A stretch of DNA of 12,040 nucleotides from Opitutia bacterium (GCA_050506795.1 JBJHCF010000074.1:1-12040), one strand, 5' to 3'. Positions 481-12,040 are shown, numbered from the stretch's first letter. Numbers and translations: made by a program. The notes: a model not told the origin generated them from the letters alone.

Positions 481-724
481 TGCTACCGGGAACCTTTTCC
501 CGCCGATTTATGGAAACCGAACATTCGTGAAATGATTCCGCCACTTTTGTTTGGCTCGACGCGTGAAAAGGACCCACGGTTTCGTGCAGGGCGCGCCGCC
601 GGAAGGCTTTGACATGGGAAATAGAGGAACGACTTAACCGGAATACGGCAACGACGGCGCGTTGCCCTCGTGTGCCCGGCTCCGCCGGGTTGGGAAGCAT
701 CTGTTTTCGGAAATGTTCTTATTT

Positions 725-1612
725 TCAGAAAACGCATTCTTCGAAGGCTTCGCGGGCGATGGCTGCGTAGAGGATGGATTCGGCGTAGCGGTCGCTTTCT
801 TCGACGAGACCGCCGCCGGCGTCGGGAAAAACCCGGGCGTAGTAGATGGTGGAGGCGAGCAGTTCGGGGGCGAAAATCAAAACGTCGCCCGCTCCCGCGT
901 TGGCTTTGAACCCGGCCATGGCCCGGCGCCACATTTCCTTGAAGTGCGCGAGATAATCGACGCCGACAGCCATTCGGGGGCGCTCCGAGAGGTGTTCGAT
1001 CGGCGCCTGCATAAATCCCGGCGCGGCGATCCGGCCATGGAGGAAACCGGTCCGGTCGAAAATAGGTTGCATGAAATCGAGCCTGGCTTCGAAATCGCCG
1101 TAAACCATCTCCTGCCCGCAATAGTAATGACTGAAATCCCCGTTGAACCGGACTTCCGGAAAGGTTTCGGTCAATCGGACCGTGCGCCAGAGATCCTGGG
1201 TGATCGTCGCCCGGTGGGTTTCGATGAACGCCGGCAGGTCATGCGTCTCCGACGCGGTCAGTGTGGCTTCGACCAGCCGGTGTGCTGTCGCGTCGTCCTC
1301 AATCCCGGTGCCGAGGTGAAGCGTGAGACACGAGTCGCCGCGTTGTTTGTGTTTGGAAAAAACGGTGTCGGCGTCTTCGGGAGCGTCGAGCCGGTCCAGG
1401 CCACAATAGGGCAGGCGGCCGCCCTGGAGCGGTGAATGATCTCCACCGAGCTGCACGCCTTCAAAACCGTCCGCCTCGATCCGCTCCGCAGCCGCGGGCC
1501 AGGCGAGGCCGGATCCAATCGAATGAGACGGCAGGGCGAAAAGCGTATCGAGATTCAAGTAAACCCGGAGTTTGGGTGCGTCCGCGGTTCCGTCGTTCAG
1601 GTATTCGGCCAT
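725..1612 (-). CDS. Xylose-isomerase-like TIM-barrel protein (sugar-phosphate isomerase/epimerase family)
   Basis: 295 aa. Motifs ADGFEGVQ, IETHR, FNGDFSHY, LHGRI and FAPEL fit the E/D/H/E metal-ligand pattern of the xylose isomerase/AP-endonuclease-2 fold. Starts 22 nt after the upstream stop. Substrate unknown. Confidence 0.7.
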   Translation of the reverse strand: MAEYLNDGTADAPKLRVYLNLDTLFALPSHSIGSGLAWPAAAERIEADGFEGVQLGGDHSPLQGGRLPYCGLDRLDAPEDADTVFSKHKQRGDSCLTLHLGTGIEDDATAHRLVEATLTASETHDLPAFIETHRATITQDLWRTVRLTETFPEVRFNGDFSHYYCGQEMVYGDFEARLDFMQPIFDRTGFLHGRIAAPGFMQAPIEHLSERPRMAVGVDYLAHFKEMWRRAMAGFKANAGAGDVLIFAPELLASTIYYARVFPDAGGGLVEESDRYAESILYAAIAREAFEECVF

Positions 1613-1634
1613 GATTTTATGAATGTGTGGCGGA

Positions 1635-3932
1635 TTAGAATTCGTCGAAAGCGATTTGATCCGGCGTGACGCCGAGTTTTTGCGTGAGCATTTTGGTGCA
1701 TGCTTTGATCATCATCGGTGGACCGCACAGGTAAAATTCGACCGCATTCAAGTTGGGATGGGTTTCCAGGTAGTGGATCAGGACGACTTCGTGGATAAAA
1801 CCGGTCAATCCGGTCCACCGGTCTTCGTCGAGGGGATCCGAGAGCGCGAAATGGAAGTCGAAGTTCGGGTGTTCCGCCGCCAGTTTCTCGAAATAGTCCG
1901 TGTAGAAAAGTTCCTGTTTGGAACGGGCGCCGTACCAATAACTGACCTTGCGGGCGGTTTTCTCGTTCTCGAAGAGGTGGGAAATGTGAGCCCGCAGGGG
2001 AGCCATGCCGGCGCCGCCGCCAATGTAAACCATCTCCTTGCGGGTCGGTTTGATGTGGAAATCCCCGAAAGGGCCGATGGCGGTCACGGTATCGCCCGGT
2101 TTGAGGCTGAAGACGTAGCTGGAACCGATCCCCGGGAGACAATCCTGCCCCGGTGGCGGCGTGGCGATGCGAACGTTGAACCTCAATTGGCGTTCGGTGT
2201 GAAGGTTGCTGGCGATCGAATAGTTGTTGCGGCGTCCCGTTTCGGGATTGCCGACGGTCAGGTCGAAGACATGCTGGCGTTCCCAAACGGCGGCGTACGG
2301 CTCGGGAATGTCGAAGTCGCGGAACCGGATTTGGTCGTACGCGGGGATGTCCAACTGGATGTAGTCACCCGGGGTGAAATCGATCCTTTCCTCGGGATCG
2401 ACCGGCTCCAGGACCAATTCCTTGATAAAGGTGGAGACGTTGCTGTTGCTCACCACGCGAAGCGTGTACGTCTTTTGGTGTCGTGCTCCATCGCCGCCCG
2501 GGTTCTGGATATTGAGCCGGATACGCCCATTGCGCTCTTCGATGGGGTACGTTGCGAGACCCCGGCAGACGGGGGCGCGGGCGGGAGAACCGTCGGCAAG
2601 ATTAAAGCGACCGTTGTGCTTCGGGCACTCGATGATTTTTCCCTTTACCAAACCGTCCGAGAGATGGGTGTTGCCGTGGGTGCAGACGCCGTCGGTGGCG
2701 TATAAAAGACCCTCGGCATCGCGACACAAGGCGAACGTCTTTTTGCCGTGATCGAAGCGGATGACATCTTCCGGTCCGAGATCGGCGCCGGCGCAAATCT
2801 CCAGCCACCCTGCGGCGTCGGGAGAAGCGTCGGAGCGGTGGCCGGATTCCTGCGAGTGTTCTTTCGACGGCGGAAGTTTCCGTTTCACGTGGTAGGTCGG
2901 ATCCTTCACCTGCTTGAGCACGGCCGGGATGATCTCTTTCCAGGCGGCGAAGAGACTTGGGTAGGGTTCGGGCATGTCGTCTTTGACGGCGTCGTGCAGT
3001 TTTGGCAAGGCGTGGTATGGAACAAGCGGAAACATGTGATGCTCCACATGGTAATTCATGTTCCAATACAAAAACCGGTGAATCGGATTCATGTAAACCG
3101 TCCGGCAATTTAGGCGGTGGTCGAGAACGTTCTCGGCCAGGCCGGCGTGCTGCGTGTACCCGTAGATCGGCATCAGCCAGGCTCCGAAAAGATTGCAGCC
3201 GCCGACCAGGAGGATCGGGAGAATGCTTCCCGTGTAGACGCTGAGTGCTATCACGGCGGCGTAGATGGCGACGTAAATGCGGGCCCGGCGGTACACCTTG
3301 GGGAATTCGCTCTCGGGAATGAACGTCTTTTCGTCCTCCGACATCTTTCCGAAGCTGTGCAGGACGATCGATTTAAAGTAGGTGAAGTAGACTTTCCAGT
3401 TGATGAAACTGAGGATCAGCGCCCTGATATTCGGCGGGCGAGGGACGGCGATTTCCGGGTCCCGGCCGACGATTATGGTGTCGCTGTGGTGGCGGGTGTG
3501 GCTCCAGCGCCAGACGGTCGATTCGCGCATCACCATGAACGAGGCGATTTCATAGAGCCAGTTGTTCATCCAATCGGTTTTGAATGCGGTGCCGTGTCCG
3601 GCTTCGTGCCAACGGGAATCGGAAGTCGACGCGTAGAGGGCGGCGTAGCACAGATAGGGAAGAACCGCCCACCAGCTTCCCCAGAGCAGAAAGGTCAGGT
3701 AACCGAATCCGACGATCAGCCCGAGCCAGAGGAGGGTGTCCCGAATCGCCGGCCCGTCCTTGCGTACCAGCAGACTGCGCATGGTGGCGCGGGGCACCGG
3801 CGATTGATACCAGTCCGCTTCGGCCAGACCGAGCTCGACCGCTCGTTCGGCGTTCTTTCCGGTCAGACTGTAATCCAGAGTGGAAGGGGGGCGCTGCAGG
3901 GCGGTCGTCCCGTGATCGTGATCGTGGTCCAT
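1635..3932 (-). CDS. Fusion protein: fatty-acid-desaturase-superfamily (MocD-like) di-iron oxygenase + Rieske [2Fe-2S] ferredoxin (MocE-like) + NqrF-like FAD/NADH oxidoreductase
   Basis: Likely start is ATG 3932 (MDHDHDH..., 765 aa); the ORF-track extension to 4202 overlaps galM. His boxes HEAGH, HTRHH, QH and NYHVEHH plus hydrophobic helices (~3932-2880). Rieske CTH...CPKH (~2810-2505). FNR-family reductase with TFIKEL, NVRIATPPP, GPFGDF, IGGGAGMAP, YWYGARS, CGPPMM and terminal FDEF (~2470-1635), closely resembling the NqrF C-terminal domain. Confidence 0.9.
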   Translation of the reverse strand: MDHDHDHGTTALQRPPSTLDYSLTGKNAERAVELGLAEADWYQSPVPRATMRSLLVRKDGPAIRDTLLWLGLIVGFGYLTFLLWGSWWAVLPYLCYAALYASTSDSRWHEAGHGTAFKTDWMNNWLYEIASFMVMRESTVWRWSHTRHHSDTIIVGRDPEIAVPRPPNIRALILSFINWKVYFTYFKSIVLHSFGKMSEDEKTFIPESEFPKVYRRARIYVAIYAAVIALSVYTGSILPILLVGGCNLFGAWLMPIYGYTQHAGLAENVLDHRLNCRTVYMNPIHRFLYWNMNYHVEHHMFPLVPYHALPKLHDAVKDDMPEPYPSLFAAWKEIIPAVLKQVKDPTYHVKRKLPPSKEHSQESGHRSDASPDAAGWLEICAGADLGPEDVIRFDHGKKTFALCRDAEGLLYATDGVCTHGNTHLSDGLVKGKIIECPKHNGRFNLADGSPARAPVCRGLATYPIEERNGRIRLNIQNPGGDGARHQKTYTLRVVSNSNVSTFIKELVLEPVDPEERIDFTPGDYIQLDIPAYDQIRFRDFDIPEPYAAVWERQHVFDLTVGNPETGRRNNYSIASNLHTERQLRFNVRIATPPPGQDCLPGIGSSYVFSLKPGDTVTAIGPFGDFHIKPTRKEMVYIGGGAGMAPLRAHISHLFENEKTARKVSYWYGARSKQELFYTDYFEKLAAEHPNFDFHFALSDPLDEDRWTGLTGFIHEVVLIHYLETHPNLNAVEFYLCGPPMMIKACTKMLTQKLGVTPDQIAFDEF

Positions 3933-3981
3933 AAACGTCGTGAATTGAAGGTTTAATTGGTTGGGTGTTCGGCGACTCGGT

Positions 3982-5037
3982 TCAAACGGTGCCGAAGGCG
4001 TAAATCGTGGTGTGGTGTTGCGGTTGGCCCGGCCGGACCAGTATGTCGCCGAATCCTGTGACATTGGTGGCTTCCGGGTATTCCTCGCATTCCAGGCAAA
4101 ACGCGCCGAATCTTTCGTATGGACGGCCGGCTTTGCCGCGGATGCTGCCATCCAGGCTGCTGCTGAAGAAGGTTTGGAGACAGCTGTTGGTGGTCCGGAC
4201 ATCGAGGACCCGGCCGGTCGATGGATCTTCGATGCGGGCCGCCTGCCTCAGGGTTTTGTCAGTGCCGATCCAATACAAGTCGCCGTGGCTCTGCCACAGG
4301 CCGGGAATGACCGTTCCGAGACGGACCGGTGTGCGCATGTCAGCCGCCCGGCCATCCACCGGTTCGAGGCGGTTGAGAAGCGTCATTGCCTCGTCGGAGG
4401 GAATGATTTGGGAGCTGTAGATTTGAGCCCGGTGGTCGAGGATCGTGCCGTTGCCCTCGCCGGCCAGATTGAAGTAGGAATGGTGGGTGATGCTCGCCGG
4501 AGTGGCCCGGTCCGATTCGACGAAGGTCTCAAAGACGAACTCATTGGCGGCGGTGACGGTGTAGGTCACGGCGACCTTGAGATTGCCCGGGTAACCTTGG
4601 TCCCCGTCCGGACTCTCGCAGCTCAGTTTCAGTGATGGAGCGCCATCGGGCCTCTCGACAGGTTCCGCTTTCCAGACTCGGGTATGCAATGCTCCGGGAC
4701 CGCCATGGAGGTGATTTGGGGGGTTATTGACCGGAAGCTGGAATGCCTCGGAGCCGAATTTCAACGTTCCCCCGGCGATCCGGCCCGCGACCCGTCCTAT
4801 CGTGGCGCCAAAGTAAGCAGGATTTTCCAGGTACGGTTCGAGATCCGGATACCCCAGGACCAGATCGGCAAACGAGCCGTTCCGGTCGGGAGCGGCCAAC
4901 CGGCGGACGATCCCCCCGAGGGTAAGGATTTCGAGCTCGAGGCCACCCGCGCCCTTCAGAGTCCAGGCTTCAACGGATTGGCCGTTGGGCATGGTACCAA
5001 AGTTTGCGGATCGCGATTGGGCATGGGTCTCGATCAT
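3982..5037 (-). CDS. galM: Aldose 1-epimerase (mutarotase)
   Basis: 351 aa. Motifs DLVLGY, YFGATIGRVAGRI, NHLHGG, DGDQGYPGNL, HHSYFNLAG and FCLE (catalytic His and Glu retained). Confidence 0.92.
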   Translation of the reverse strand: MIETHAQSRSANFGTMPNGQSVEAWTLKGAGGLELEILTLGGIVRRLAAPDRNGSFADLVLGYPDLEPYLENPAYFGATIGRVAGRIAGGTLKFGSEAFQLPVNNPPNHLHGGPGALHTRVWKAEPVERPDGAPSLKLSCESPDGDQGYPGNLKVAVTYTVTAANEFVFETFVESDRATPASITHHSYFNLAGEGNGTILDHRAQIYSSQIIPSDEAMTLLNRLEPVDGRAADMRTPVRLGTVIPGLWQSHGDLYWIGTDKTLRQAARIEDPSTGRVLDVRTTNSCLQTFFSSSLDGSIRGKAGRPYERFGAFCLECEEYPEATNVTGFGDILVRPGQPQHHTTIYAFGTV

Positions 5038-5045
5038 AAGATGAC

Positions 5046-5076
5046 ATAATGCCCTCTATGCAATACGGTTGTCTTC
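5046..5076 (-). promoter_or_regulatory. Putative internal promoter upstream of galM (GAAGAC-N19-CATTAT)
   Basis: Lies in a 129-nt intergenic gap. The -10-like CATTAT (5051-5046) is 8 nt before the ATG. GAAGAC (5076-5071) sits at the same 19-nt spacing as in the mtaC upstream region. Confidence 0.3.
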
Positions 5077-5166
5077 TCGTTTTTCTACCGGAAGATTTCG
5101 CTAATTGTCATTCCGCGTCTTTCGGTGCTTACAGGTTGGGGTGGGGTAGTACGTCCTCGTGGTCCG

Positions 5167-6738
5167 TCAGCGGTCGTGATCGAGCGGATCCAGGGGCATG
5201 CAATCGATGAAGTGGTCTTCGAAGGACTCGACCTGGTTGAGTTCGATTACCCGGGCGTTGGCGCGGAGCGTCTCAATGGCGGATTCGTTTTCGGATTGCA
5301 GCATCAGTGAGGCCCCGCCGAGGGAAGCGTTGCCGATCACCCTGAGTCGGTCAAACGGGACGTTGGGAAGCATTCCGACCGCCATGGCGTGTTTGCGGTC
5401 GAGGTGATAGCCGAAGCCGCCGGCGATGAAGATCGTTTCCAAATCGTCCGGCCGGAGATCGGCCACTTCCAACAGGGTCGTCACGCCGGCGGCAATGGCG
5501 GCTTTGGCTTGGATAAGTTCCGCGACGTCGGATTCGGAGACAAAGAGCCGGCTGTGGATCGTCACCCGGCATTCCGGTCCGTCGGGACCTGCGCGTGTTT
5601 CGACTTCGGGATGGTTCGACTCGAATCGTCCCATTGCGTTGAGCAGGCCTTCCGTCCGGGCGAGGGCAAGGAAGTCGACGTAGGCCGCTCCCGATATCGC
5701 CGACGGGCGGACTCGTTGTTCGCCGATGGAATGCAGTTGGGACCAGCGGCCGGATTCGCGGGTAAGAGCTGAAATCACGTTTTTGGCGGCCGGGGCGCCG
5801 CAGTTCAGGCGGCCGCCTTCGAAGGCGGGGCCGGCGGCGGTGGCGGTGGCGAGAAAGCCGTCGGCGGTTTTGAGCAGAATTTCGCCGTTGGTGCCGAAAT
5901 CGATCAGGAGAGCCGGGCGTTCGAGTTCCAGAATACCGGAGGCCAAAGCGCCCGCGATGATGTCGGCCCCGACGAACGGTCCGAGACTGCCGGCGAGCAT
6001 GAGGGGGAAATCGGTTGAAAACCCGAGGCTCGCGGAGGGAACGGTGCTGGCTTCGAGGAACTCCGGCTCGAAGGGGTACGAGGCGAAGCCCGATAGCCGG
6101 GCTCCGGTCAGGCTGTGCAGCATCACGGTGTTGCCGGCGGCGATGCCTTCGGTGATTTTCGACGGTTCGACGTCGGCGTTCCGGCAAAGACGGTCGATCA
6201 AAGGTCCGAGAGCGTCCCGGACCAAGGCTGCTTGCAGTTTGGGGCAGGCGCCTCCTTGTGTAACGGCATGATCGATACGGGAAAGGACGTTGTCGCCGTA
6301 GCGCCGTTGTTCGTTGGCGGCGGATCCGCCGGCGAGGCATTTGCCGGTCGCGAGATCCCAGAGCGCGGCGGCGACGGTGGTGGTTCCGATATCGAGAGCC
6401 AGGCCGATGCCGGGCCGGCGGCGAAGCGCATGGGAATGTGTTCCGATCTCGAAGGAACTCACTCCGTTCAGACTTTGGTCACGCACCGACGCCTCGGGGA
6501 TGCGTATCGAGGCCCCGTCGGCCGGGAGCTGGGCGCAGGTGATTTGGCAGGCGCGGCGCGGAGTTCCGTCGACCTCCACCAGGCAGCTTCGGCAAAGTCC
6601 GCGTCCGCCGCAGCGCGTGTTCAGCGGAAGATGTTCCGTTTCGAGCCACTCGGAGAGGATCCGGGATGTGTCGGCTGGAGTGGCGCGGAGGTAACGGCGT
6701 CCATCGGGCATGTCGATGAGAATGTCGGATCGGGACAT
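5167..6738 (-). CDS. ASKHA-domain ATP-dependent reductive activator of corrinoid proteins (RACo/DUF4445) with N-terminal [2Fe-2S] domain
   Basis: 523 aa. N-terminal CGGRGLCRSC...RACQ. ASKHA motifs LDIGTTT, YGDNVLSRI, AGNTVMLH, FVGADI, IDFGTNGEI, AAGPAFEGG, QAKAAIAAG, IAGGFG and GNASLGGA. Context is a corrinoid methyltransferase cluster. Confidence 0.92.
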   Translation of the reverse strand: MSRSDILIDMPDGRRYLRATPADTSRILSEWLETEHLPLNTRCGGRGLCRSCLVEVDGTPRRACQITCAQLPADGASIRIPEASVRDQSLNGVSSFEIGTHSHALRRRPGIGLALDIGTTTVAAALWDLATGKCLAGGSAANEQRRYGDNVLSRIDHAVTQGGACPKLQAALVRDALGPLIDRLCRNADVEPSKITEGIAAGNTVMLHSLTGARLSGFASYPFEPEFLEASTVPSASLGFSTDFPLMLAGSLGPFVGADIIAGALASGILELERPALLIDFGTNGEILLKTADGFLATATAAGPAFEGGRLNCGAPAAKNVISALTRESGRWSQLHSIGEQRVRPSAISGAAYVDFLALARTEGLLNAMGRFESNHPEVETRAGPDGPECRVTIHSRLFVSESDVAELIQAKAAIAAGVTTLLEVADLRPDDLETIFIAGGFGYHLDRKHAMAVGMLPNVPFDRLRVIGNASLGGASLMLQSENESAIETLRANARVIELNQVESFEDHFIDCMPLDPLDHDR

Positions 6739-6742
6739 GACA

Positions 6743-7468
6743 TCAGGGGCGGGCGACGAGGGTGCCGTCGGAATCGGCCTCGATCGAATGATCGGGCGGG
6801 ACGATCAGAAACCGGTCGGAGTGCCAGTCCCGGTTGATGAGCTGGAGGAGAAAGGAAGGATCCGCTTTCAGGCATTGGAATTCCCAGCCCTGGTGGGAGG
6901 CACAGTCGCGGCAATAGTTTTCGGCGGCCGGTTTGTTGAAAATGGAGAGGTAGGCCGCGCGGTTGTGGTGGGCTAAAGCTTCCCGGTCGGCGTCGACCAA
7001 TTCGTCGAGCATCTCCTCGTCGTCGCCGTAACGTTCGGAGTAGAGTTCACGCAGGTGTTGTTCCCGGTCAGGCCCGGGGACGCGTTTTCCGCGGATCCAC
7101 CCTGGCGAGTAGAAATAAGTCCCCGGATTCTTCTTCAGGACGGCGTCGTGCTGAGCTCGTCCGCCGAGCAGGATGGAAATGCAGTCGTGTGCCTGCGGGA
7201 GGATCAGGCGGCAACGTTCCGCCCTGACGCCGAGCAAGCCGTTTCCGCAGCGGCCGTAGGCGAGTAGGATGGTTTGCAGTTGCGGGTGGTCGGCCTCGAG
7301 GGAAGCGATTTGTTGTTGGACTGTTTCCCGAAGTTGGTCCGGCCGGTCGTGGAGTCCCATCTCCAGGAAGACCGCGGCGCACCAGGGAGGGGAGGCTGTT
7401 ACAAAATGGTTGATTTCCTCCTTGAAAACATCGCAGGCGAGTAGGGCGTGATGGCCGGCTGGTTTCAT
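6743..7468 (-). CDS. DUF1638 family protein (associated with corrinoid methyltransferase clusters)
   Basis: Likely start is ATG 7468 (MKPAGHHALLACDVF..., 241 aa), overlapping the upstream stop in ATGA. Motifs ACDVFKEE, LEMGLHDRP, YGRCGNGL, AHDCISILLG and GTYFYSPGW. Confidence 0.85.
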   Translation of the reverse strand: MKPAGHHALLACDVFKEEINHFVTASPPWCAAVFLEMGLHDRPDQLRETVQQQIASLEADHPQLQTILLAYGRCGNGLLGVRAERCRLILPQAHDCISILLGGRAQHDAVLKKNPGTYFYSPGWIRGKRVPGPDREQHLRELYSERYGDDEEMLDELVDADREALAHHNRAAYLSIFNKPAAENYCRDCASHQGWEFQCLKADPSFLLQLINRDWHSDRFLIVPPDHSIEADSDGTLVARP

Positions 7469-8733
7469 GGAGCCGCCATCCCATTGAACTCCCGCACTGC
7501 ATCGAGCATGGCGACGACGTTTTCGGTGGGAGTGCGGGCCTGGATGTTGTGAATGGTGTTGAACACGAACCCGCCGCCCGGGCCGAAAATCCGGCAGCGT
7601 TCGATCACTTCGTCGCGGACCTGCTGTGGGGTGCCGAATGGAAGCGTTTGCTGGGTATTGACGCCTCCGCCCCAGAAGGTGAGGCGGTCGCCGTATTTGT
7701 TTTTCAACAACTGTGGATCCATGCCGTCGGCCGAGCATTGGACCGGATTGATGATATCGAAGCCCGATTCGATAAAACTGTCGAGCAATGGTTCCACGGC
7801 GCCGCAAGAGTGCTTGAAGGTTTTCCAGCGTGTGTTTTGATGGATCCAGTCGTTGATCTTTTTGTAGCGCGGCAGCCAGATCCGTTCATAGGTTTCGACG
7901 CTGCAAAAGAGGGAGGTTTGGGTGCCGAAGTCGGTGCCGCAGACGACCACAACATCAATCACATCGCCCGCAATTTTGTGGAGTTTTTCCATATTGTGAA
8001 TGGCGATCTCGGTCTGCCGATCGAAGATTTTTCCGACGAAATCGGGTTCCTCGGATGTGAGCATGTACCAGTCCGCCACGCCCCGGACTCCCTTGGGATG
8101 GGTCAGAAAAGGGGCGGGAACCAGAGCGATGTCGCCGAGGCCGGTGCCGTTCAGATGGACGGAGACGGCCCGGTCGGAGCCCCGGGAGAGTTCGGCCTGT
8201 TCCTTCCAATACGTTTCCTCCTCCGTCGACATCGGGCCGAACTCTTCGAGATTGTCTTCGAGCTTCAATTCGTCCTCGTCGAAGTCCGGGTCGATTCGCT
8301 CGATGGTGTCAAAGAAGTAGCCGGTCTTGGGCATATGACCGCTGGGCGGGGCGGACCGGTCGCCTTGGGGAAAGATGAAGGTGTTCCCGTGCGGGTCGGT
8401 GGTGGTTTGAAAATGTTTGGAGACCAGCACCTGTTGTCCCCAGGGAGTGGTCCATGGCGTCCAATCCTCGTTGGGAAACCCGAAGATGGTGCGTTGCGGG
8501 AAGATCGGCCGGACATCGATTCCCATGGCGTCGAGCAGGTCTTCCTCGACGACCCCAAGCATCTGGTAGGGCTCGCCGATTTTGACCGGGCGTTCGGTGA
8601 GACCGTAGTGGTGTCGCAAACCTTCGACGACGCTGCAGTGGATGCCGGTGATGAAGGAGCTGCCGAAATCGATCGGGATGCGGTCGGGCTCGCGGTGGTT
8701 GAGACTCTCGATGACGCGTTGTTTGGAAGTCAT
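7465..8733 (-). CDS. Uroporphyrinogen-decarboxylase-fold (URO-D/MtaA-like) corrinoid-dependent methyltransferase
   Basis: 422 aa. N-terminus MTSKQRV...HREPDRIPIDFG, then GTDFGTQ, KHSCG, GFDIINPVQ, LTFWGG, LPFGTP and GGFVFNTIHNIQ. These are typical of bacterial URO-D-family methyltransferases rather than true HemE. Confidence 0.85.
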   Translation of the reverse strand: MTSKQRVIESLNHREPDRIPIDFGSSFITGIHCSVVEGLRHHYGLTERPVKIGEPYQMLGVVEEDLLDAMGIDVRPIFPQRTIFGFPNEDWTPWTTPWGQQVLVSKHFQTTTDPHGNTFIFPQGDRSAPPSGHMPKTGYFFDTIERIDPDFDEDELKLEDNLEEFGPMSTEEETYWKEQAELSRGSDRAVSVHLNGTGLGDIALVPAPFLTHPKGVRGVADWYMLTSEEPDFVGKIFDRQTEIAIHNMEKLHKIAGDVIDVVVVCGTDFGTQTSLFCSVETYERIWLPRYKKINDWIHQNTRWKTFKHSCGAVEPLLDSFIESGFDIINPVQCSADGMDPQLLKNKYGDRLTFWGGGVNTQQTLPFGTPQQVRDEVIERCRIFGPGGGFVFNTIHNIQARTPTENVVAMLDAVREFNGMAAP

Positions 8734-8757
8734 GGGCTGAAGGTGTCGGTGTCAGGT

Positions 8758-10143
8758 TTATGGCTGCGCGGCGAGGTATTCTTCCGGGTTGAATTTGGTG
8801 CGGTCGGATTCTTCGAGCATTTCGTCGATGAACTCGTCCTCGGTGTCGGGCATCTCGTCCAATTCGTCCTCCATGCGTTGGAGCCAGGAGGTTTCGCGGG
8901 GGTCGCTGGGCAGGCAACCCCCTTCGGTGGCTTCGCGAAGGATGGTGATCGCCGTCCGGGCGGCGGCGATGCCGGCGTGGTAGTGAGATTCCGATTCCAC
9001 GATCGATCCGGCGATGCGGACGCTGCTCTCGGGGGAGATGATCAGGGCCTGAGGATCGTGACCGGCATCCGATTTCACCAGCCAGTTGCGCAACGTCAGG
9101 GCCGATTCCTTGCCCTCGCCGGAGGCGCAATTCATCAGGCGGCAGTCGTAGACCAATTGCTCCATGTAGCAAGTGGGGGCCATGCCGGCGAGCAGTTTGA
9201 TGTTCTGGACGGATTCGTTCGACCAAAGATCGGCGGTGGCGGCGGCGAGGTTGCCCATCGGGCTGAGGTGGGCACAGGCGGCGGTTTTCCCTTCCATGCT
9301 CATGGGGCATCCGGTGATCGCCTTGAGGATCGGGTTTTCGTAACCGCAGTCTTTTCCGGGCCCGACGGCACCGCATTCGTAGGCGACGAGGGAGCGGACG
9401 GCGGTGATTGCCCGGACGACGGAGGCAAAGATGCGGGGGATCATTTTCCGTTCCGCCAGGACCATGGCGGTATTGCCGAAGCCACAAGCGGTGTCGCCGG
9501 CGGCGTATGCGCCATGCTTGTTCGCGATTGCGACGATATGATCCCAGAGGAATCGCATGTCCCGCACTCCGAGCACGCACAGCGCAAAAATTACGGCGCG
9601 AAGGTCGCCGTTGACCAGCGCGTCATCGTGCACCTCTTTGCCGCCCACGCTTTCGATGCTGAGGAATTCCGTGCCGGCGGCGGCGGAGCGGTCGAAGAGT
9701 TCGAGCATGGCGTCGAGGTAGCGCCCTCCGCGCATCACCGGGGGCCGGACGAATTCGCGGTTGTCGTTCGGCGTGCAACGCAATGTCGCCCTGAGGCCGT
9801 ACTTGTCGTGGGCGTGTTCGATGCCGTGGAGAAGGATGTCGACCACCTCCATGCCGAGGTCCGGAAACTCGGTCATCGGCGGCAGCGTTTCGAACTCCAG
9901 CATCACGCCGGGAATCTCCAGTTCCGCGGCCCGTTCGAGGGCGCCGGTGACGATCTGTTTGTAATGCCGGGCGATGGCGGGCATCGATTCCTTCCGGATG
10001 TCGATATCGGGTAGGGTGAAGTTGAGCTCCGGATACACGGTTCCCCCGCCGATGACCATGCCGTGGCGGGTGGTGATCGGGTGAGGCGCGTTTCCGTAGA
10101 TCAGGTCGACGGGATTGGAAATGGCGAGTTTGTTGAATGTCAT
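8758..10143 (-). CDS. mtaB: Methanol:corrinoid methyltransferase (MtaB family, MT1)
   Basis: 461 aa, similar along its length to bacterial (acetogen-type) MtaB as recalled: IGGGTVYPELNFTLP, LRCTPND, LSIESVGGKEVHD, GDTACGF, GPGKDCGYE, SMEGKTAACAHLS, WSNESVQN, EQLVYDCRLMN, DPQA. The Glu/Cys/Cys zinc ligands are present. Confidence 0.92.
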   Translation of the reverse strand: MTFNKLAISNPVDLIYGNAPHPITTRHGMVIGGGTVYPELNFTLPDIDIRKESMPAIARHYKQIVTGALERAAELEIPGVMLEFETLPPMTEFPDLGMEVVDILLHGIEHAHDKYGLRATLRCTPNDNREFVRPPVMRGGRYLDAMLELFDRSAAAGTEFLSIESVGGKEVHDDALVNGDLRAVIFALCVLGVRDMRFLWDHIVAIANKHGAYAAGDTACGFGNTAMVLAERKMIPRIFASVVRAITAVRSLVAYECGAVGPGKDCGYENPILKAITGCPMSMEGKTAACAHLSPMGNLAAATADLWSNESVQNIKLLAGMAPTCYMEQLVYDCRLMNCASGEGKESALTLRNWLVKSDAGHDPQALIISPESSVRIAGSIVESESHYHAGIAAARTAITILREATEGGCLPSDPRETSWLQRMEDELDEMPDTEDEFIDEMLEESDRTKFNPEEYLAAQP

Positions 10144-10169
10144 CGGCTGCGTTCGGTGTTAAGAGTCGG

Positions 10170-10802
10170 TTATCCGGCCAGAGCTTCCCGGGCGGCATCG
10201 ACGGCGCTGGCGGCGTCGCGCGAGTAGCCGTCGGCGCCGATTTCCGCCGCATAGGAATCGGTGATCGGCGCGCCTCCGACGAGGATTTTCAGATCGGTGT
10301 GACCGGCGTTGCGGATCGCGGCGACGGTATCCTTCATCGCCGGCATGGTGGTGGTCAGGAGGGCGGAAAGCCCGACCAGGTGCGGTTTGTGTTGGTCGAT
10401 GGCGGCGAGGAAGGCGTCGGCGCTGACGTTGACACCGAGATCGATCACTTCGAACCCGGCTCCCTTCCACATCGTGGCGACGAGATTCTTGCCGATATCG
10501 TGCAAGTCTCCCTCGACGGTACCGATGACGGCGGTGAATTCCGGCTTGATGCCGGCCGCGACCAATTTCGGTTCGATCTCGGTCATCGCCTGCTTCATGG
10601 CGCGCGCGGCGACCAGCATTTCCGGAACGAAGATTTCGTTTCTCTTGAAACGCTCGCCGACGACCGACATGGCGGGAATCAAGGCCTGTTCCAGGATGGC
10701 GGACGGTTCGACGCCGGAGTCGAGGAGGTCCGGCATGATGGCCTTGACCTCTTTGCGTTTGCCGTTGATTACGGCGGTTTTGAGATCTTCGAGTGTGCTC
10801 AT
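10170..10802 (-). CDS. Cobalamin-binding corrinoid protein (MtaC/MtbC/MttC-like methyl carrier)
   Basis: Likely start is ATG 10802 (MSTLEDLK..., 210 aa); the ORF-track extension to 11033 overlaps the regulator. Cap domain (GERF...EIFVPEML) and B12-binding GDLHDIGKNLV (DxHxxG), DLGVNV, GLSALLTTTM, VGGAP, IGADGY. Confidence 0.95.
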   Translation of the reverse strand: MSTLEDLKTAVINGKRKEVKAIMPDLLDSGVEPSAILEQALIPAMSVVGERFKRNEIFVPEMLVAARAMKQAMTEIEPKLVAAGIKPEFTAVIGTVEGDLHDIGKNLVATMWKGAGFEVIDLGVNVSADAFLAAIDQHKPHLVGLSALLTTTMPAMKDTVAAIRNAGHTDLKILVGGAPITDSYAAEIGADGYSRDAASAVDAAREALAG

Positions 10803-10871
10803 GACGATGTGTGGTGGACGGACGATTGTTGTCTTGTTTGGATTCCGGACAACGGAACGGTCAATTGGGGC

Positions 10872-10902
10872 AGTATAACCGAAGCCGACCGGTCGGGTCT
10901 TG
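10872..10902 (-). promoter_or_regulatory. Putative activator-dependent sigma70 promoter of the methyltransferase operon (CAAGAC-N19-TATACT)
   Basis: Near-consensus -10 TATACT (10877-10872) with no consensus -35, as expected for AraC-activated promoters. A perfect 12-bp palindrome CCGACCGGTCGG (10885-10896) lies in the spacer. Confidence 0.45.
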
Positions 10903-10918
10903 TAATCCGAGCTGGTTT

Positions 10919-11989
10919 TCAGGTACACACGTGTTTTTTGCCGGTTCGGACCCGTTTTCGGTAGTCCCCCGGAGACAGGGTTAGCGCGGCGCGGAAGGTT
11001 TTGTTGAAATGGCTTTGATCGTAGAATCCGCATTCGGCGCCGATCTCGGCGAGGCTCTTGTCGGTGCGGGCCAGCAATTCTTTGGCTTTGTTGACCCGCA
11101 TCTGGGAAAGCAGGTGGGAAAAGGAACGGCCCATCCGTTCGGTGACCAGCTTGCTGAAGTGACTTGGTGAAACGCCGGCGACGCGGGCCACATCGTCGCG
11201 GCGCAGGTGCTGGTGAAGGTTGGCCTGCATGTGGCGGATGGCTCGCAGGAGCAGAACGGAGTGGGGAAATTCGTGATTGCCGCGGATGCAGTCGATCAGC
11301 GTTTCCAGCATACGCCGAACCCAGGTGGAAAGATCCTCTTCGTCCTCGATTTCAGAGAGTTCCGTCAGAGAGCGGTAGTTGCTGCCAAGCGCGGTGGATG
11401 GTTCGGCGCCGGCTTCGACCGCGGCGCGATTCATCATGACGATCAGTTCGAGGACGCTGCTCTTTAAAAGATCCATGCGGTCTCCGGCGAGGGCGTAAAT
11501 CGCCGTAAGGATCCGGTTCAGGATGGATCGGGCGCGTTGGGTGTCGCTCTCTTTGATGGCGGCAAGCAAGTCGGGTTCCTCGTCCAGGTAGATGCTGCGC
11601 AAATCGTCGCTGACGGAATCTTTTTTGGCCGCTTCGATAGCATAGAAGCGGTCGCTTTCACGGGCGGCGCGTTGGCGGGCCAGTTCGACGGCGGCTCGCG
11701 GGAGAAGATTCTCGCGCAGGGCGAGTTTGAGGAGGGCGCCGGCCGCGTGTTGGACCCGGCCAGGCAGGTCCGGAGCGCCGGTTTCGAGATCGATGCCCTG
11801 GACAATCAAGGCTCCCTTGAGCGCATTGTTGTCCATGATCGGGACACCCCACATCGCGTAGCCGTTGTCGCAGCAGAGGTTGATCACCGTCTCTCCCCAG
11901 TAGAGGGTTTGCTCGGCGGCCTGGAGGCGGCGGCGTTGATTCTGCGACCGGCAGAAGCAATCGGTTCGGGGCTGGCCGCCGGCGACCAC
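10919..11989 (-). CDS. AraC-family transcriptional regulator with Cys-containing PocR-like N-terminal sensor (start uncertain)
   Basis: C-terminal double HTH: LRRDDVARVAGVSPSHFSKL...RVNKAKELL...LAEIGAECGFYDQSHFNKTFR...SPGDYR. N-terminal DCFC...NLCCDNGY..WGVPIM....KGALIV resembles a PocR domain. Helical middle region ELIVMMNRAAVEAGA. An in-frame TAA at 12017-12019 limits upstream extension. Confidence 0.88.
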   Translation of the reverse strand: MVAGGQPRTDCFCRSQNQRRRLQAAEQTLYWGETVINLCCDNGYAMWGVPIMDNNALKGALIVQGIDLETGAPDLPGRVQHAAGALLKLALRENLLPRAAVELARQRAARESDRFYAIEAAKKDSVSDDLRSIYLDEEPDLLAAIKESDTQRARSILNRILTAIYALAGDRMDLLKSSVLELIVMMNRAAVEAGAEPSTALGSNYRSLTELSEIEDEEDLSTWVRRMLETLIDCIRGNHEFPHSVLLLRAIRHMQANLHQHLRRDDVARVAGVSPSHFSKLVTERMGRSFSHLLSQMRVNKAKELLARTDKSLAEIGAECGFYDQSHFNKTFRAALTLSPGDYRKRVRTGKKHVCT

Positions 11990-12040
11990 ACCGCCGGCGG
12001 CATTTGTCAGCAGGAGTTAGAAACTGCTGGAGGTAGTGTA

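Follow-up and report, generated by a model that had tools for sequence, protein, structure and literature searches.

When sugars carry methyl ethers, as for example in algal, moss and pectic glycans, they are closed to the ordinary routes of sugar breakdown, and a cytochrome P450 system is, to our knowledge, the only established bacterial remedy for methylated sugars. Oxidative O-demethylation has also been proposed for the rhizobial proteins MocD, MocE and MocF, with the rhizopine 3-O-methyl-scyllo-inosamine as the substrate. Here, we analysed a gene cluster of an Opitutia bacterium (GCA_050506795.1) in which a relative of MocDEF is preceded by a B12-dependent (corrinoid) methyl-transfer module. 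The window, i.e. the whole stretch of DNA that was analysed, is the entire 12,040-base contig C74 (JBJHCF010000074.1) of a 4.9-Mb genome, which consists of 82 contigs and is 97.8% complete.

The P450 of marine Bacteroidota oxidatively demethylates 6-O-methyl-D-galactose and thereby unblocks its catabolism (PMC6292453). PMC10107442 names the moc genes and calls MocC a protein of unknown function. Corrinoid O-demethylases follow a scheme of four components: methyltransferase I (MT I), a corrinoid protein, methyltransferase II (MT II) and an activating enzyme (PMC8630106). The original prediction, made from the sequence of the window alone, knew of no described operon that combines the modules found here, and none was found in the literature searched. 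The same search, with many subscription papers outside its reach, found no paper on corrinoid- or B12-dependent demethylation of methylated sugars or on the fused oxygenase.

Linkage of the B12 module to the oxygenase

Reading of the open reading frames (ORFs) together with Pfam and NCBIfam scans assigned all nine real genes to the minus strand, co-oriented and filling the contig. In the order of transcription, they encode an AraC-family regulator, the corrinoid protein MtaC, the methyltransferase MtaB, a protein of 422 amino acids (aa) with a methyltransferase fold, a DUF1638 protein, a RACo-type activase, the epimerase GalM, an oxygenase fusion and a 295-aa protein. The original prediction had described this cluster as a B12 module, a fused oxygenase, GalM and a TIM barrel in one orientation, and all of its domain calls were reproduced by Pfam and NCBIfam.

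We surveyed 401 Verrucomicrobiota genomes with MtaB, the fusion and the 422-aa protein as queries. MtaB-like proteins were found in 26 genomes, the fusion in 29, and members of the 422-aa family in 80. Orthologs of the 422-aa protein, with 67-76% identity, were present in 10 of the 400 other genomes; all ten also carried the fusion, and five carried MtaB. MtaB and the fusion occurred together in six genomes, namely the window's own and exactly those five whose MtaB is at least 64% identical to that of the window, and the distance between the two genes was less than 6 kb in three of the six.

A full B12 module was physically linked to the oxygenase in the window and at six other loci (L051, L054, L057, L062, L112 and L113; loci are numbered with L and genomes with G). 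The linkage is repeated in Verrucomicrobiota and Acidobacteriaceae with differing gene orders, and in L057 the oxygenase is placed between the B12 genes. At three loci (L024, L026 and L140), the 422-aa gene directly preceded GalM or a sugar porter and the fusion, under a cupin-type AraC regulator and with neither MtaB nor MtaC in the locus. Hence, the two halves that the original prediction had paired do co-occur elsewhere, repeatedly and in two phyla, but MtaB, which it took as the marker of the B12 half, is not the component that tracks the oxygenase. Comparison of gene context thus gives good support for a link between a B12 methyltransferase and a MocDEF-like oxygenase that runs via the 422-aa enzyme instead of MtaB.

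Relatives of the window hold two separate B12 modules, one of the methanol type and one of the 422-aa type with its own corrinoid protein. The methanol-type module of L112 reads PocR/AraC, MtaC, MtaB, MtaA, CobW, DUF1638 and RACo. In the window, the two modules are merged, with the 422-aa gene in the slot that MtaA occupies in L112. Our preferred reading, to which we give an even chance, is that the contig carries an island of genes for the catabolism of a sugar with a methyl ether, from which the methyl group could be removed by either of two distinct chemistries.

The 422-aa methyltransferase

The 422-aa protein (positions 7465-8733, minus strand) is a predicted methyltransferase of the MtaA/URO-D fold. 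Its URO-D match was restricted to residues 214-416 (55 bits), and its match to the MtaA/CmuA model (TIGR01463; 47 bits) did not reach the cut-off of 235. A sequence search of solved structures returned weak UroD tails only, at E 0.1 or worse. The structure predicted with AlphaFold2 (AF2; pLDDT 91) gave M. mazei MtaA as the top matches in Foldseek (4AY8/4AY7, template modelling (TM) scores 0.56/0.68, E 4e-11), followed by UroD and MetE, and showed an extra beta-rich insert at about residues 74-135. Residues H308, S309, C310, G311 and H395 were invariant in 23 sequences (an H-x-C-G...H pattern), whereas we take the zinc site of MtaA/CmuA to be H-x-C ... C. The third-ligand column holds an invariant His (H395) in the 422-aa group, and a Cys in three paralogs with a weak URO-D match (L113:5965, L139 and L144) and in five canonical URO-D rows. 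The automatic label of the ESM Atlas, 'Putative methyltransferase CmuC', was kept as a lead and not counted as evidence.

MtaC-like genes directly adjoined 422-aa genes in G080, G035, G377, G288, G044, G281 and G282, and were separated from them by about 2 kb in G107 and by about 3 kb in G117; in the window, MtaB intervenes within the same operon. In four of the five genomes without MtaB, the 422-aa gene shared its contig with an MtaC-like gene of 63-67% identity (the adjacent pairs of G080, G035 and G377, and G107); in the fifth, G174, the MtaC-like gene was on a different contig. The module consists of MtaC, the 422-aa gene and then either a second URO-D-fold gene or a homocysteine (Hcy) S-methyltransferase gene (L139, L157 and L158). 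The second URO-D-fold gene is of the canonical full-length MtaA type in L136-L138, and weaker or unresolved in L142, L144 and L145. CobW/DUF1638 and RACo follow in the same locus in L136, L139, L142 and L145. Since other enzymes fill the acceptor role in these modules, the 422-aa protein is most simply read as a corrinoid enzyme on the donor side, i.e. a putative substrate-specific methyl-sugar:corrinoid methyltransferase. In the O-demethylases of aryl methyl ethers, URO-D-superfamily enzymes are likewise known to serve as the methyltransferases on the substrate side (PMC8630106).

Homologs with 55-60% identity to the 422-aa protein also occurred in five genomes without the fusion, none of which had a heme-copper oxidase match. 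In these five genomes and three further ones, the homologs were located in carbohydrate loci, with the gene orders AraC - Sugar_tr - 422aa - glycoside hydrolase (GH) family GH2 - sulfatase (L152), AraC / FGGY kinase - 422aa - Sugar_tr - TIM barrel (L153), and sulfatase - 422aa - GH16 - esterase - GH2 (L156); other neighbours were GH97, GH65 or GH20.

Several further features of this family and its neighbours were observed. The family is strongly expanded in some Verrucomicrobiota (G301, G262, G323 and others), with up to 96 first-look candidates per genome, and databases name its members only 'uroporphyrinogen decarboxylase family protein' or 'methyltransferase'. One homolog, with 74% identity, belongs to the cultured species Pelagicoccus mobilis (P0057). 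In the canonical MtaA types (L138:11253-12608, L136:8130-9545, L137:8332-9699 and L112:14100-15533), the C-terminus is extended by about 100 residues that include a CxxC motif (CAPC); in L138, this extension weakly matches Thioredoxin_3. In L157 (3767-5728), a Hcy S-methyltransferase domain is fused to an MTHFR domain near several URO-D-fold paralogs, a corrinoid protein and RACo; from its gene content, this island looks like a multi-substrate demethylation system feeding methionine or folate. Glycoside hydrolases beside B12/422-aa modules, namely a GH2 LacZ-type beta-galactosidase at L113:1371-4523 and GH39 and GH95 at L137:14670-18520, are possible pointers to the parent glycan.

The oxygenase and its sugar cassette

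The oxygenase (1635-3932, minus strand) is a predicted single-chain membrane di-iron oxygenase of 765 aa, with FA_desaturase, Rieske and FAD_binding_6/NAD_binding_1 domains in one ORF. The FA_desaturase part (PF00487, 127 bits) has the His boxes HEAGH at 109, HTRHH at 145 and HVEHH at 295; the Rieske motif CxH..CxxH is at 417-439, and hydrophobic stretches span residues 65-91 and 217-256. The MocE-family Rieske model (TIGR02377) matched over its full length with 113 bits, below its cut-off of 136, and the reductase part is NqrF/FNR-like (339 bits to the nqrF model). Among the 25 matches listed, rhizobial pairs annotated as 'fatty acid desaturase family protein | MocE family ferredoxin' were mostly 52-56% identical to residues ~6-476, and the lowest match had 49.7%; about 60% of the query was covered, and all 553 matching plasmid records stayed below 60%. 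On pSymB of S. meliloti, the corresponding three-gene set includes a separate FAD oxidoreductase and stands behind a LacI regulator.

A scan with one genome per species yielded at least 603 relatives of the fusion. The loci of the best 80, with 67-80% identity, were examined, many of them cut by contig ends; they came from Opitutaceae, Terrimicrobiaceae, Chthoniobacterales, Akkermansiaceae, Acidobacteriaceae, Kiritimatiellia, Phycisphaerae and a few Bacteroidota. GalM was directly upstream of the oxygenase in 30 of the 80 loci, and the 295-aa TIM barrel directly downstream in 27. Clustering of the neighbours also returned a divergent cupin-type AraC regulator in 18 loci and a major facilitator superfamily (MFS) sugar porter in 13, but no recurrent lipid genes beside the oxygenase at these 80 loci. 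In L062, genes for RhaA, RhaT and an FGGY kinase were immediately upstream on the same strand. Both GalM and the oxygenase are present in L061, which stems from a cultured strain of Oleiharenicola lentus. A lipid desaturase reading of the fusion was therefore rejected on gene context. Because sugar genes recur and nothing lipid-related does, the fusion is read as a single-chain relative of MocDEF that probably acts on a free sugar or a sugar-like compound, and its surroundings look like a sugar cassette. In the window, this cassette has no cupin-type AraC regulator of its own and starts 129 nucleotides (nt) after RACo with the gene for a GalM-like aldose 1-epimerase (3982-5037, minus strand; Aldose_epim, PF01263, 196 bits), whose score against galM_Leloir (TIGR02636) was 216 bits, below the cut-off of 398.

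Contigs from a soda lake (X2) and a salt lake (X3), which are about 96% alike on either side of the join, connect position 2389 to 2711 and thereby skip 321 nt (107 codons, in frame). The skipped part comprises residues ~407-514, i.e. the Rieske domain, and it seems that a related population carries a Rieske-less fusion.

Proposed demethylation routes

In the proposed first route, the methylated sugar would enter the cell and GalM would equilibrate its anomers. With O2 and NAD(P)H, and by means of the FNR and Rieske domains that it carries itself, the oxygenase would then hydroxylate the O-methyl carbon, and the resulting hemiacetal would collapse into formaldehyde and the demethylated sugar. 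A subsequent step of the isomerase or epimerase type could fall to the 295-aa TIM-barrel metalloenzyme. In the second route, the 422-aa enzyme would move the same methyl group to Co(I) of MtaC, with RACo and DUF1638 re-reducing the cofactor upon its oxidation. MtaB would most likely use the same MtaC as a further methyl donor enzyme, with methanol as its substrate. That the B12 route and the oxygenase both remove the same sugar methyl ether is the best reading, at roughly even odds. We infer which class of substrate is used, in which direction each methyl group moves, and that the two routes belong to different oxygen (or B12) regimes.

Several observations weigh against two routes for one methyl ether. 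Alkyl methyl ethers are far poorer methyl donors than the aryl ethers of the known O-demethylases, and a TIM barrel such as the 295-aa protein has no obvious role in a simple demethylation. MtaB and the oxygenase were on separate contigs in three of the six genomes that have both. Among the 80 oxygenase loci, just four had a full B12 module within 10 kb and seven a 422-aa homolog, and 17 of the 29 genomes with the oxygenase had no 422-aa homolog of at least 55% identity. The support consists of gene context among kin, so that the genomes are not independent. With at least 8000 database proteins, the 422-aa family is a large one that often has many paralogs per genome, and specificity therefore cannot be carried over from its neighbours. 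Moreover, no recognisable acceptor-side methyltransferase was found in the 97.8% complete genome, and the second route as written is therefore incomplete here.

The last two points on this side concern oxygen. With heme-copper oxidase matches counted at E 1e-60 or better, 132 of the 401 genomes had such an oxidase. It was present in all 29 genomes with the fusion, in 21 of the 80 genomes that have members of the 422-aa family and in 9 of the 26 that have MtaB; the window's genome had four strong matches. Hence, the oxygenase is confined to oxygen-respiring lineages among the 401 genomes, whereas the corrinoid enzymes occur mainly, but not exclusively, in lineages without a heme-copper oxidase. 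The original prediction had divided the two modules between oxic and anoxic conditions, on the ground that corrinoid systems are typical of anaerobes. The survey agrees with this idea, but its premise is weak and does not force such a split: every genome with both routes has a heme-copper oxidase, and corrinoid methyl transfer dependent on RamA/RACo and DUF1638 operates in aerobic Phaeobacter and Ruegeria (PMC5764234 and PMC12478193). A division of labour by oxygen is therefore not required. The pattern fits the idea without proving it, for these two reasons and because the genomes are kin and cytochrome bd was not surveyed. Other reasons for keeping two routes are just as possible, among them B12 supply and what the methyl group is turned into (formaldehyde, or else methionine or folate).

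In one of the surveyed genomes (G070, 2.0 Mb), one of the two matches to oxidase subunit I (C3:14026-15366) spanned the full length and included 10 TGA codons in frame, which could be due to recoding of TGA, to decay of this copy or to a contig of foreign origin.

Alternative explanations

The two halves could be independent neighbours, which we consider unlikely. The B12 module would then serve methanol utilisation or a methanol-to-methionine pathway, with MtaB loading MtaC from methyl-ester-derived methanol and the 422-aa enzyme as the acceptor-side methyltransferase, and the cassette of GalM, oxygenase and TIM barrel would be an unrelated sugar module. This explanation draws on MtaB itself (8758-10143, minus strand), a zinc methyltransferase of the methanol:corrinoid type that is single-copy in the window's genome. 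It matched PF12176 with 557 bits over positions 3-459 of 460, and M. barkeri MtaB (2I2X chain A) with 304 bits over residues 3-456. The zinc-ligand columns hold E, C and C in both proteins (motifs LSVES, GDTDC and GKDCGYEN), the ligands of M. barkeri MtaB presumably being E164, C220 and C269. Against the NCBIfam model MtaB_Meth (NF040651) it scored 430 bits, below the equivalog cut-off of 720, which makes it a family member without implying the same function. Because the zinc-ligand residues are kept and a canonical MtaA stands alongside in L112, MtaB is more likely to be a methanol enzyme than a sugar-ether enzyme.

Gene arrangement provides further arguments for independence. AraC, MtaC and MtaB form a conserved trio in relatives, and with its PocR/AraC regulator this trio stands by itself, apart from the oxygenase, in G231, G044 and G281. 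The 422-aa gene fills the slot after MtaB that a canonical MtaA holds in L112, and the fold that it matches best is that of MtaA, which works on the acceptor side. RACo and DUF1638 of the window are closer to MtaB-type modules (56-67% identity) than to 422-aa modules (43-50%). Furthermore, a gap of 129 nt (5038-5166, minus strand) separates RACo, and with it the B12 module, from GalM and the sugar cassette. On the minus strand of this gap, a scan for promoters and terminators found neither kind of site. Over the window as a whole, the scan was uninformative: it returned 2 promoter-like sites where 2.7 were expected, and 17 terminator-like sites where the expectation was 12.9. From this layout, it is possible that the whole cluster stands behind one regulator. 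The distribution of the 422-aa gene argues against independent halves, as its orthologs accompany the oxygenase in ten of ten genomes and MtaB in five of ten, and the gene is part of the sugar cassette without MtaB in L024, L026 and L140. An obvious acceptor, Hcy S-methyltransferase, accompanies the 422-aa gene in G107, G117 (L139 and L157) and other loci, which suggests a donor-side role. Finally, the linkage recurs in two phyla and in different gene orders.

The oxygenase might also not be a demethylase, although this seems rather improbable. It would then hydroxylate or desaturate a C-H bond of a sugar, cyclitol or lipid, the TIM barrel would process the product, and the B12 enzymes would act on another compound of the same polysaccharide. 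The FA_desaturase superfamily catalyses many oxidations, and the reaction of the rhizobial homologs is itself a proposal, MocC being described as of unknown function (PMC10107442). The 295-aa protein (725-1612, minus strand) adds to this case. It is a predicted xylose-isomerase-like TIM-barrel metalloenzyme by fold only; scans of Pfam, PF01261 (AP_endonuc_2) included, and of NCBIfam gave no match up to E 10. Its family profile matched AsbF (3DX5) at E 0.004. The AF2 model (pLDDT 92) matched UlaE, Art22, a C-glycoside deglycosidase, AsbF, ketose 3-epimerases (DTE) and IolE in Foldseek, at TM scores of 0.5-0.6 and with a probability of 1.00 for UlaE, Art22, AsbF, DTE and IolE. Residues H99, E131, H133, D159, H162, H192 and E250, of the metal-ligand type, were invariant. 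It thus resembles isomerases, dehydratases (AsbF, IolE) and a C-glycoside deglycosidase, none of which a plain demethylation needs. Nevertheless, it is sugar genes and not lipid genes that recur beside the oxygenase, its closest named kin are of the MocD/MocE type, and a gene with a methyltransferase fold is found repeatedly in the same operon.

The acceptor side bears on the last alternative. In the window's genome, the only URO-D-type matches were HemE and the 422-aa gene, the Hcy S-methyltransferase domain was found only within MetH, Pterin_bind only in a FolP-like gene and MetH, and MtrH was not found. With MT II of these four known types not found in the genome, the three-component set of a corrinoid O-demethylase is incomplete, whereas relatives do carry MT II candidates. 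Three options are possible: the acceptor enzyme is unassembled or of an unfamiliar kind, the 422-aa enzyme acts on the acceptor side and handles methyl groups from methanol, or MtaB and the 422-aa enzyme form one cycle. Such a cycle would amount to corrinoid-mediated hydrolysis of the methyl ether, in which the 422-aa enzyme loads Co(I)-MtaC and MtaB, in reverse, passes the methyl group to water (sugar-O-CH3 + H2O -> sugar-OH + methanol), with need for neither oxygen nor an acceptor, and would stand beside an oxygen-dependent enzyme of the same function. MtaB and the 422-aa enzyme are the only two methyltransferases able to serve MtaC that were found in this genome, the closest relative (G231, with an MtaB that is 81% identical) likewise has no canonical URO-D match of about 200 bits besides HemE, and all five genomes with an MtaB at least 64% identical to that of the window have both a 422-aa ortholog and the oxygenase. 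We nevertheless regard this cycle as very unlikely, as we know of no physiological route with reverse MtaB (no literature search was aimed at it), canonical MtaA-type or Hcy methyltransferase genes adjoin MtaB in G288 and G098, the co-occurring genomes are close kin, and in a draft of 82 contigs with a window that ends in assembly breaks the acceptor may be unassembled or of an unknown type.

Other genes of the cluster and assembly

The MtaC-like corrinoid protein (10170-10802, minus strand) has 210 aa when read from an internal ATG, and matched B12-binding_2 with 78 bits and B12-binding with 101 bits. Its match to the NCBIfam model pyl_corrinoid (174 bits) was under the cut-off of 215, as were those to other NCBIfam models under theirs. 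D99, H101 and G104 of the DxHxxG motif were invariant in 12 aligned homologs. The RACo-type ATP-dependent reductive activase (5167-6738, minus strand) matched RACo_C_ter with 198 bits and Raco_middle with 130 bits; its N-terminal Fer2 match was weak (E 0.0017, 18.7 bits, cut-off 21), and the NCBIfam AcsV-like model gave 279 bits, below the cut-off of 800. The DUF1638 protein (6743-7468, minus strand; PF07796, 127 bits), the start of which overlaps the stop of the 422-aa gene, was assigned as a partner of corrinoid reactivation of the RamA/RACo type from PMC5764234 and PMC12478193. A CobW-type GTPase, of a metal chaperone family, is fused to DUF1638 in L136 (6417-8015), where the longest-ORF call may join two adjacent genes, and immediately precedes DUF1638 in the B12 methyltransferase module of L112 (15530-16453). 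This association hints that DUF1638 acts with a metal-insertion step.

The regulator (10919-11989, minus strand) was predicted to be of the PocR/AraC type. Its AraC helix-turn-helix was borne out (HTH_18 with 89 bits, and HTH_AraC). The PocR-type sensor domain was a marginal match in the window's copy (E 0.2) and gains support from the family, in which seven of nine aligned members, the window's copy included, matched at E up to 1 (best 2e-9). The protein has 356 aa, compared to 396-439 aa in eight full-length homologs, and is thus about 40-80 residues shorter at the N-terminus. Because of this short N-terminus and an assembly break at 11992-12003, the 5' end of the gene is probably cut. Longest-ORF calls overlapped the upstream neighbour in three genes, whose starts were shifted to internal ATGs at 3932, 7468 and 10802.

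A contig from a second assembler, from the probable source run (a mine-tailings metagenome), had no differences over positions 621-11992. Furthermore, contigs from a soda-lake metagenome of a separate study, about 95-96% alike, spanned the GalM/RACo, RACo/DUF1638, 422-aa/MtaB and MtaB/MtaC junctions. The second-assembler contig and these independent bridging contigs rule out misassembly as the origin of the hybrid gene order. Near-identical or related DNA was found in metagenome runs from mine tailings, a soda lake, a salt lake and lake water, and the mine-tailings run was the only one with all of the window's sequence words. In the probable source run, Logan contigs come to an end at 11992-12003 and near 72-101 and 621, and one Logan joint connects position 1 with 73 on opposite strands; the contig ends are assembly breaks.

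Significance and comparison with known systems

If demethylation by two routes is correct, there would be two further sugar-demethylating systems: a widespread, self-sufficient membrane di-iron oxygenase, and a family of B12-dependent methyltransferases, that of the 422-aa enzyme, which is very common in polysaccharide-degrading Verrucomicrobiota. Corrinoid O-demethylation would extend from aromatic to carbohydrate ethers, and polysaccharide breakdown in anoxic sediments and guts would be tied to one-carbon (C1) flow, whether as methionine, folate or methanol. One operon would then retain two enzymes of the same function, of which one depends on oxygen and the other does not.

The aerobic Roseobacter systems, split methionine synthase and MtgBC, the latter for the demethylation of glycine betaine, likewise sustain a corrinoid protein with a RamA/RACo-like activase and DUF1638 (PMC5764234 and PMC12478193), and relatives of the window (L113, L139, L157 and L158) use Hcy S-methyltransferase as the acceptor. 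In contrast to these systems, the candidate donors of the window are MtaB and a URO-D-fold enzyme, not an MttB-family MtgB or a pterin-binding domain, and they are linked to sugar genes. With MtaABC of Methanosarcina and acetogens, the window shares a full-length MtaB that keeps the zinc positions and adjoins MtaC, to which L112 adds a canonical MtaA. The host, however, is an oxidase-bearing Verrucomicrobium, MtaB reaches 430 of the required 720 bits, and the adjacent MtaA-fold enzyme is the divergent 422-aa form.

The Mtv, Odm and Mto corrinoid O-demethylases of anaerobes (PMC8630106) likewise combine a DxHxxG corrinoid protein with an MT I, for which the URO-D/MtaA-fold enzyme is the candidate in the window, and with a RACo-type activase; relatives of the window also have a second methyltransferase as MT II. 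Their known substrates are aryl methyl ethers, whereas the window has a carbohydrate context and a host with heme-copper oxidases. The window's genome also differs in having no recognisable MT II, and the module includes DUF1638 (with CobW in relatives) and, in the operon, MtaB. The P450 demethylase has the same job as that proposed for the first route, but this soluble heme enzyme is unrelated to the oxygenase and has its redox partners as separate proteins, and the likeness is one of functional analogy only.

MocD, MocE and MocF and the oxygenase both comprise a di-iron protein of the FA_desaturase family, a MocE-family Rieske protein and a flavin reductase, and the MocDEF-like pairs on megaplasmids of Sinorhizobium, Rhizobium and Ensifer are homologous over residues ~6-476 (mostly 52-56% identity). 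The TIM barrel of the window, with its IolE-like fold, can be likened to MocC, which we take to be IolE-like. Compared to MocDEF, the oxygenase has neighbours of the aldose type (GalM), an MFS sugar porter and AraC, and no inosamine genes. Its Rieske part is close kin of the MocE family but stays below the cut-off of the family model (113 versus 136 bits), and the window fuses the three parts in one chain with an NqrF/FNR-like reductase, where pSymB encodes a separate FAD-dependent oxidoreductase.

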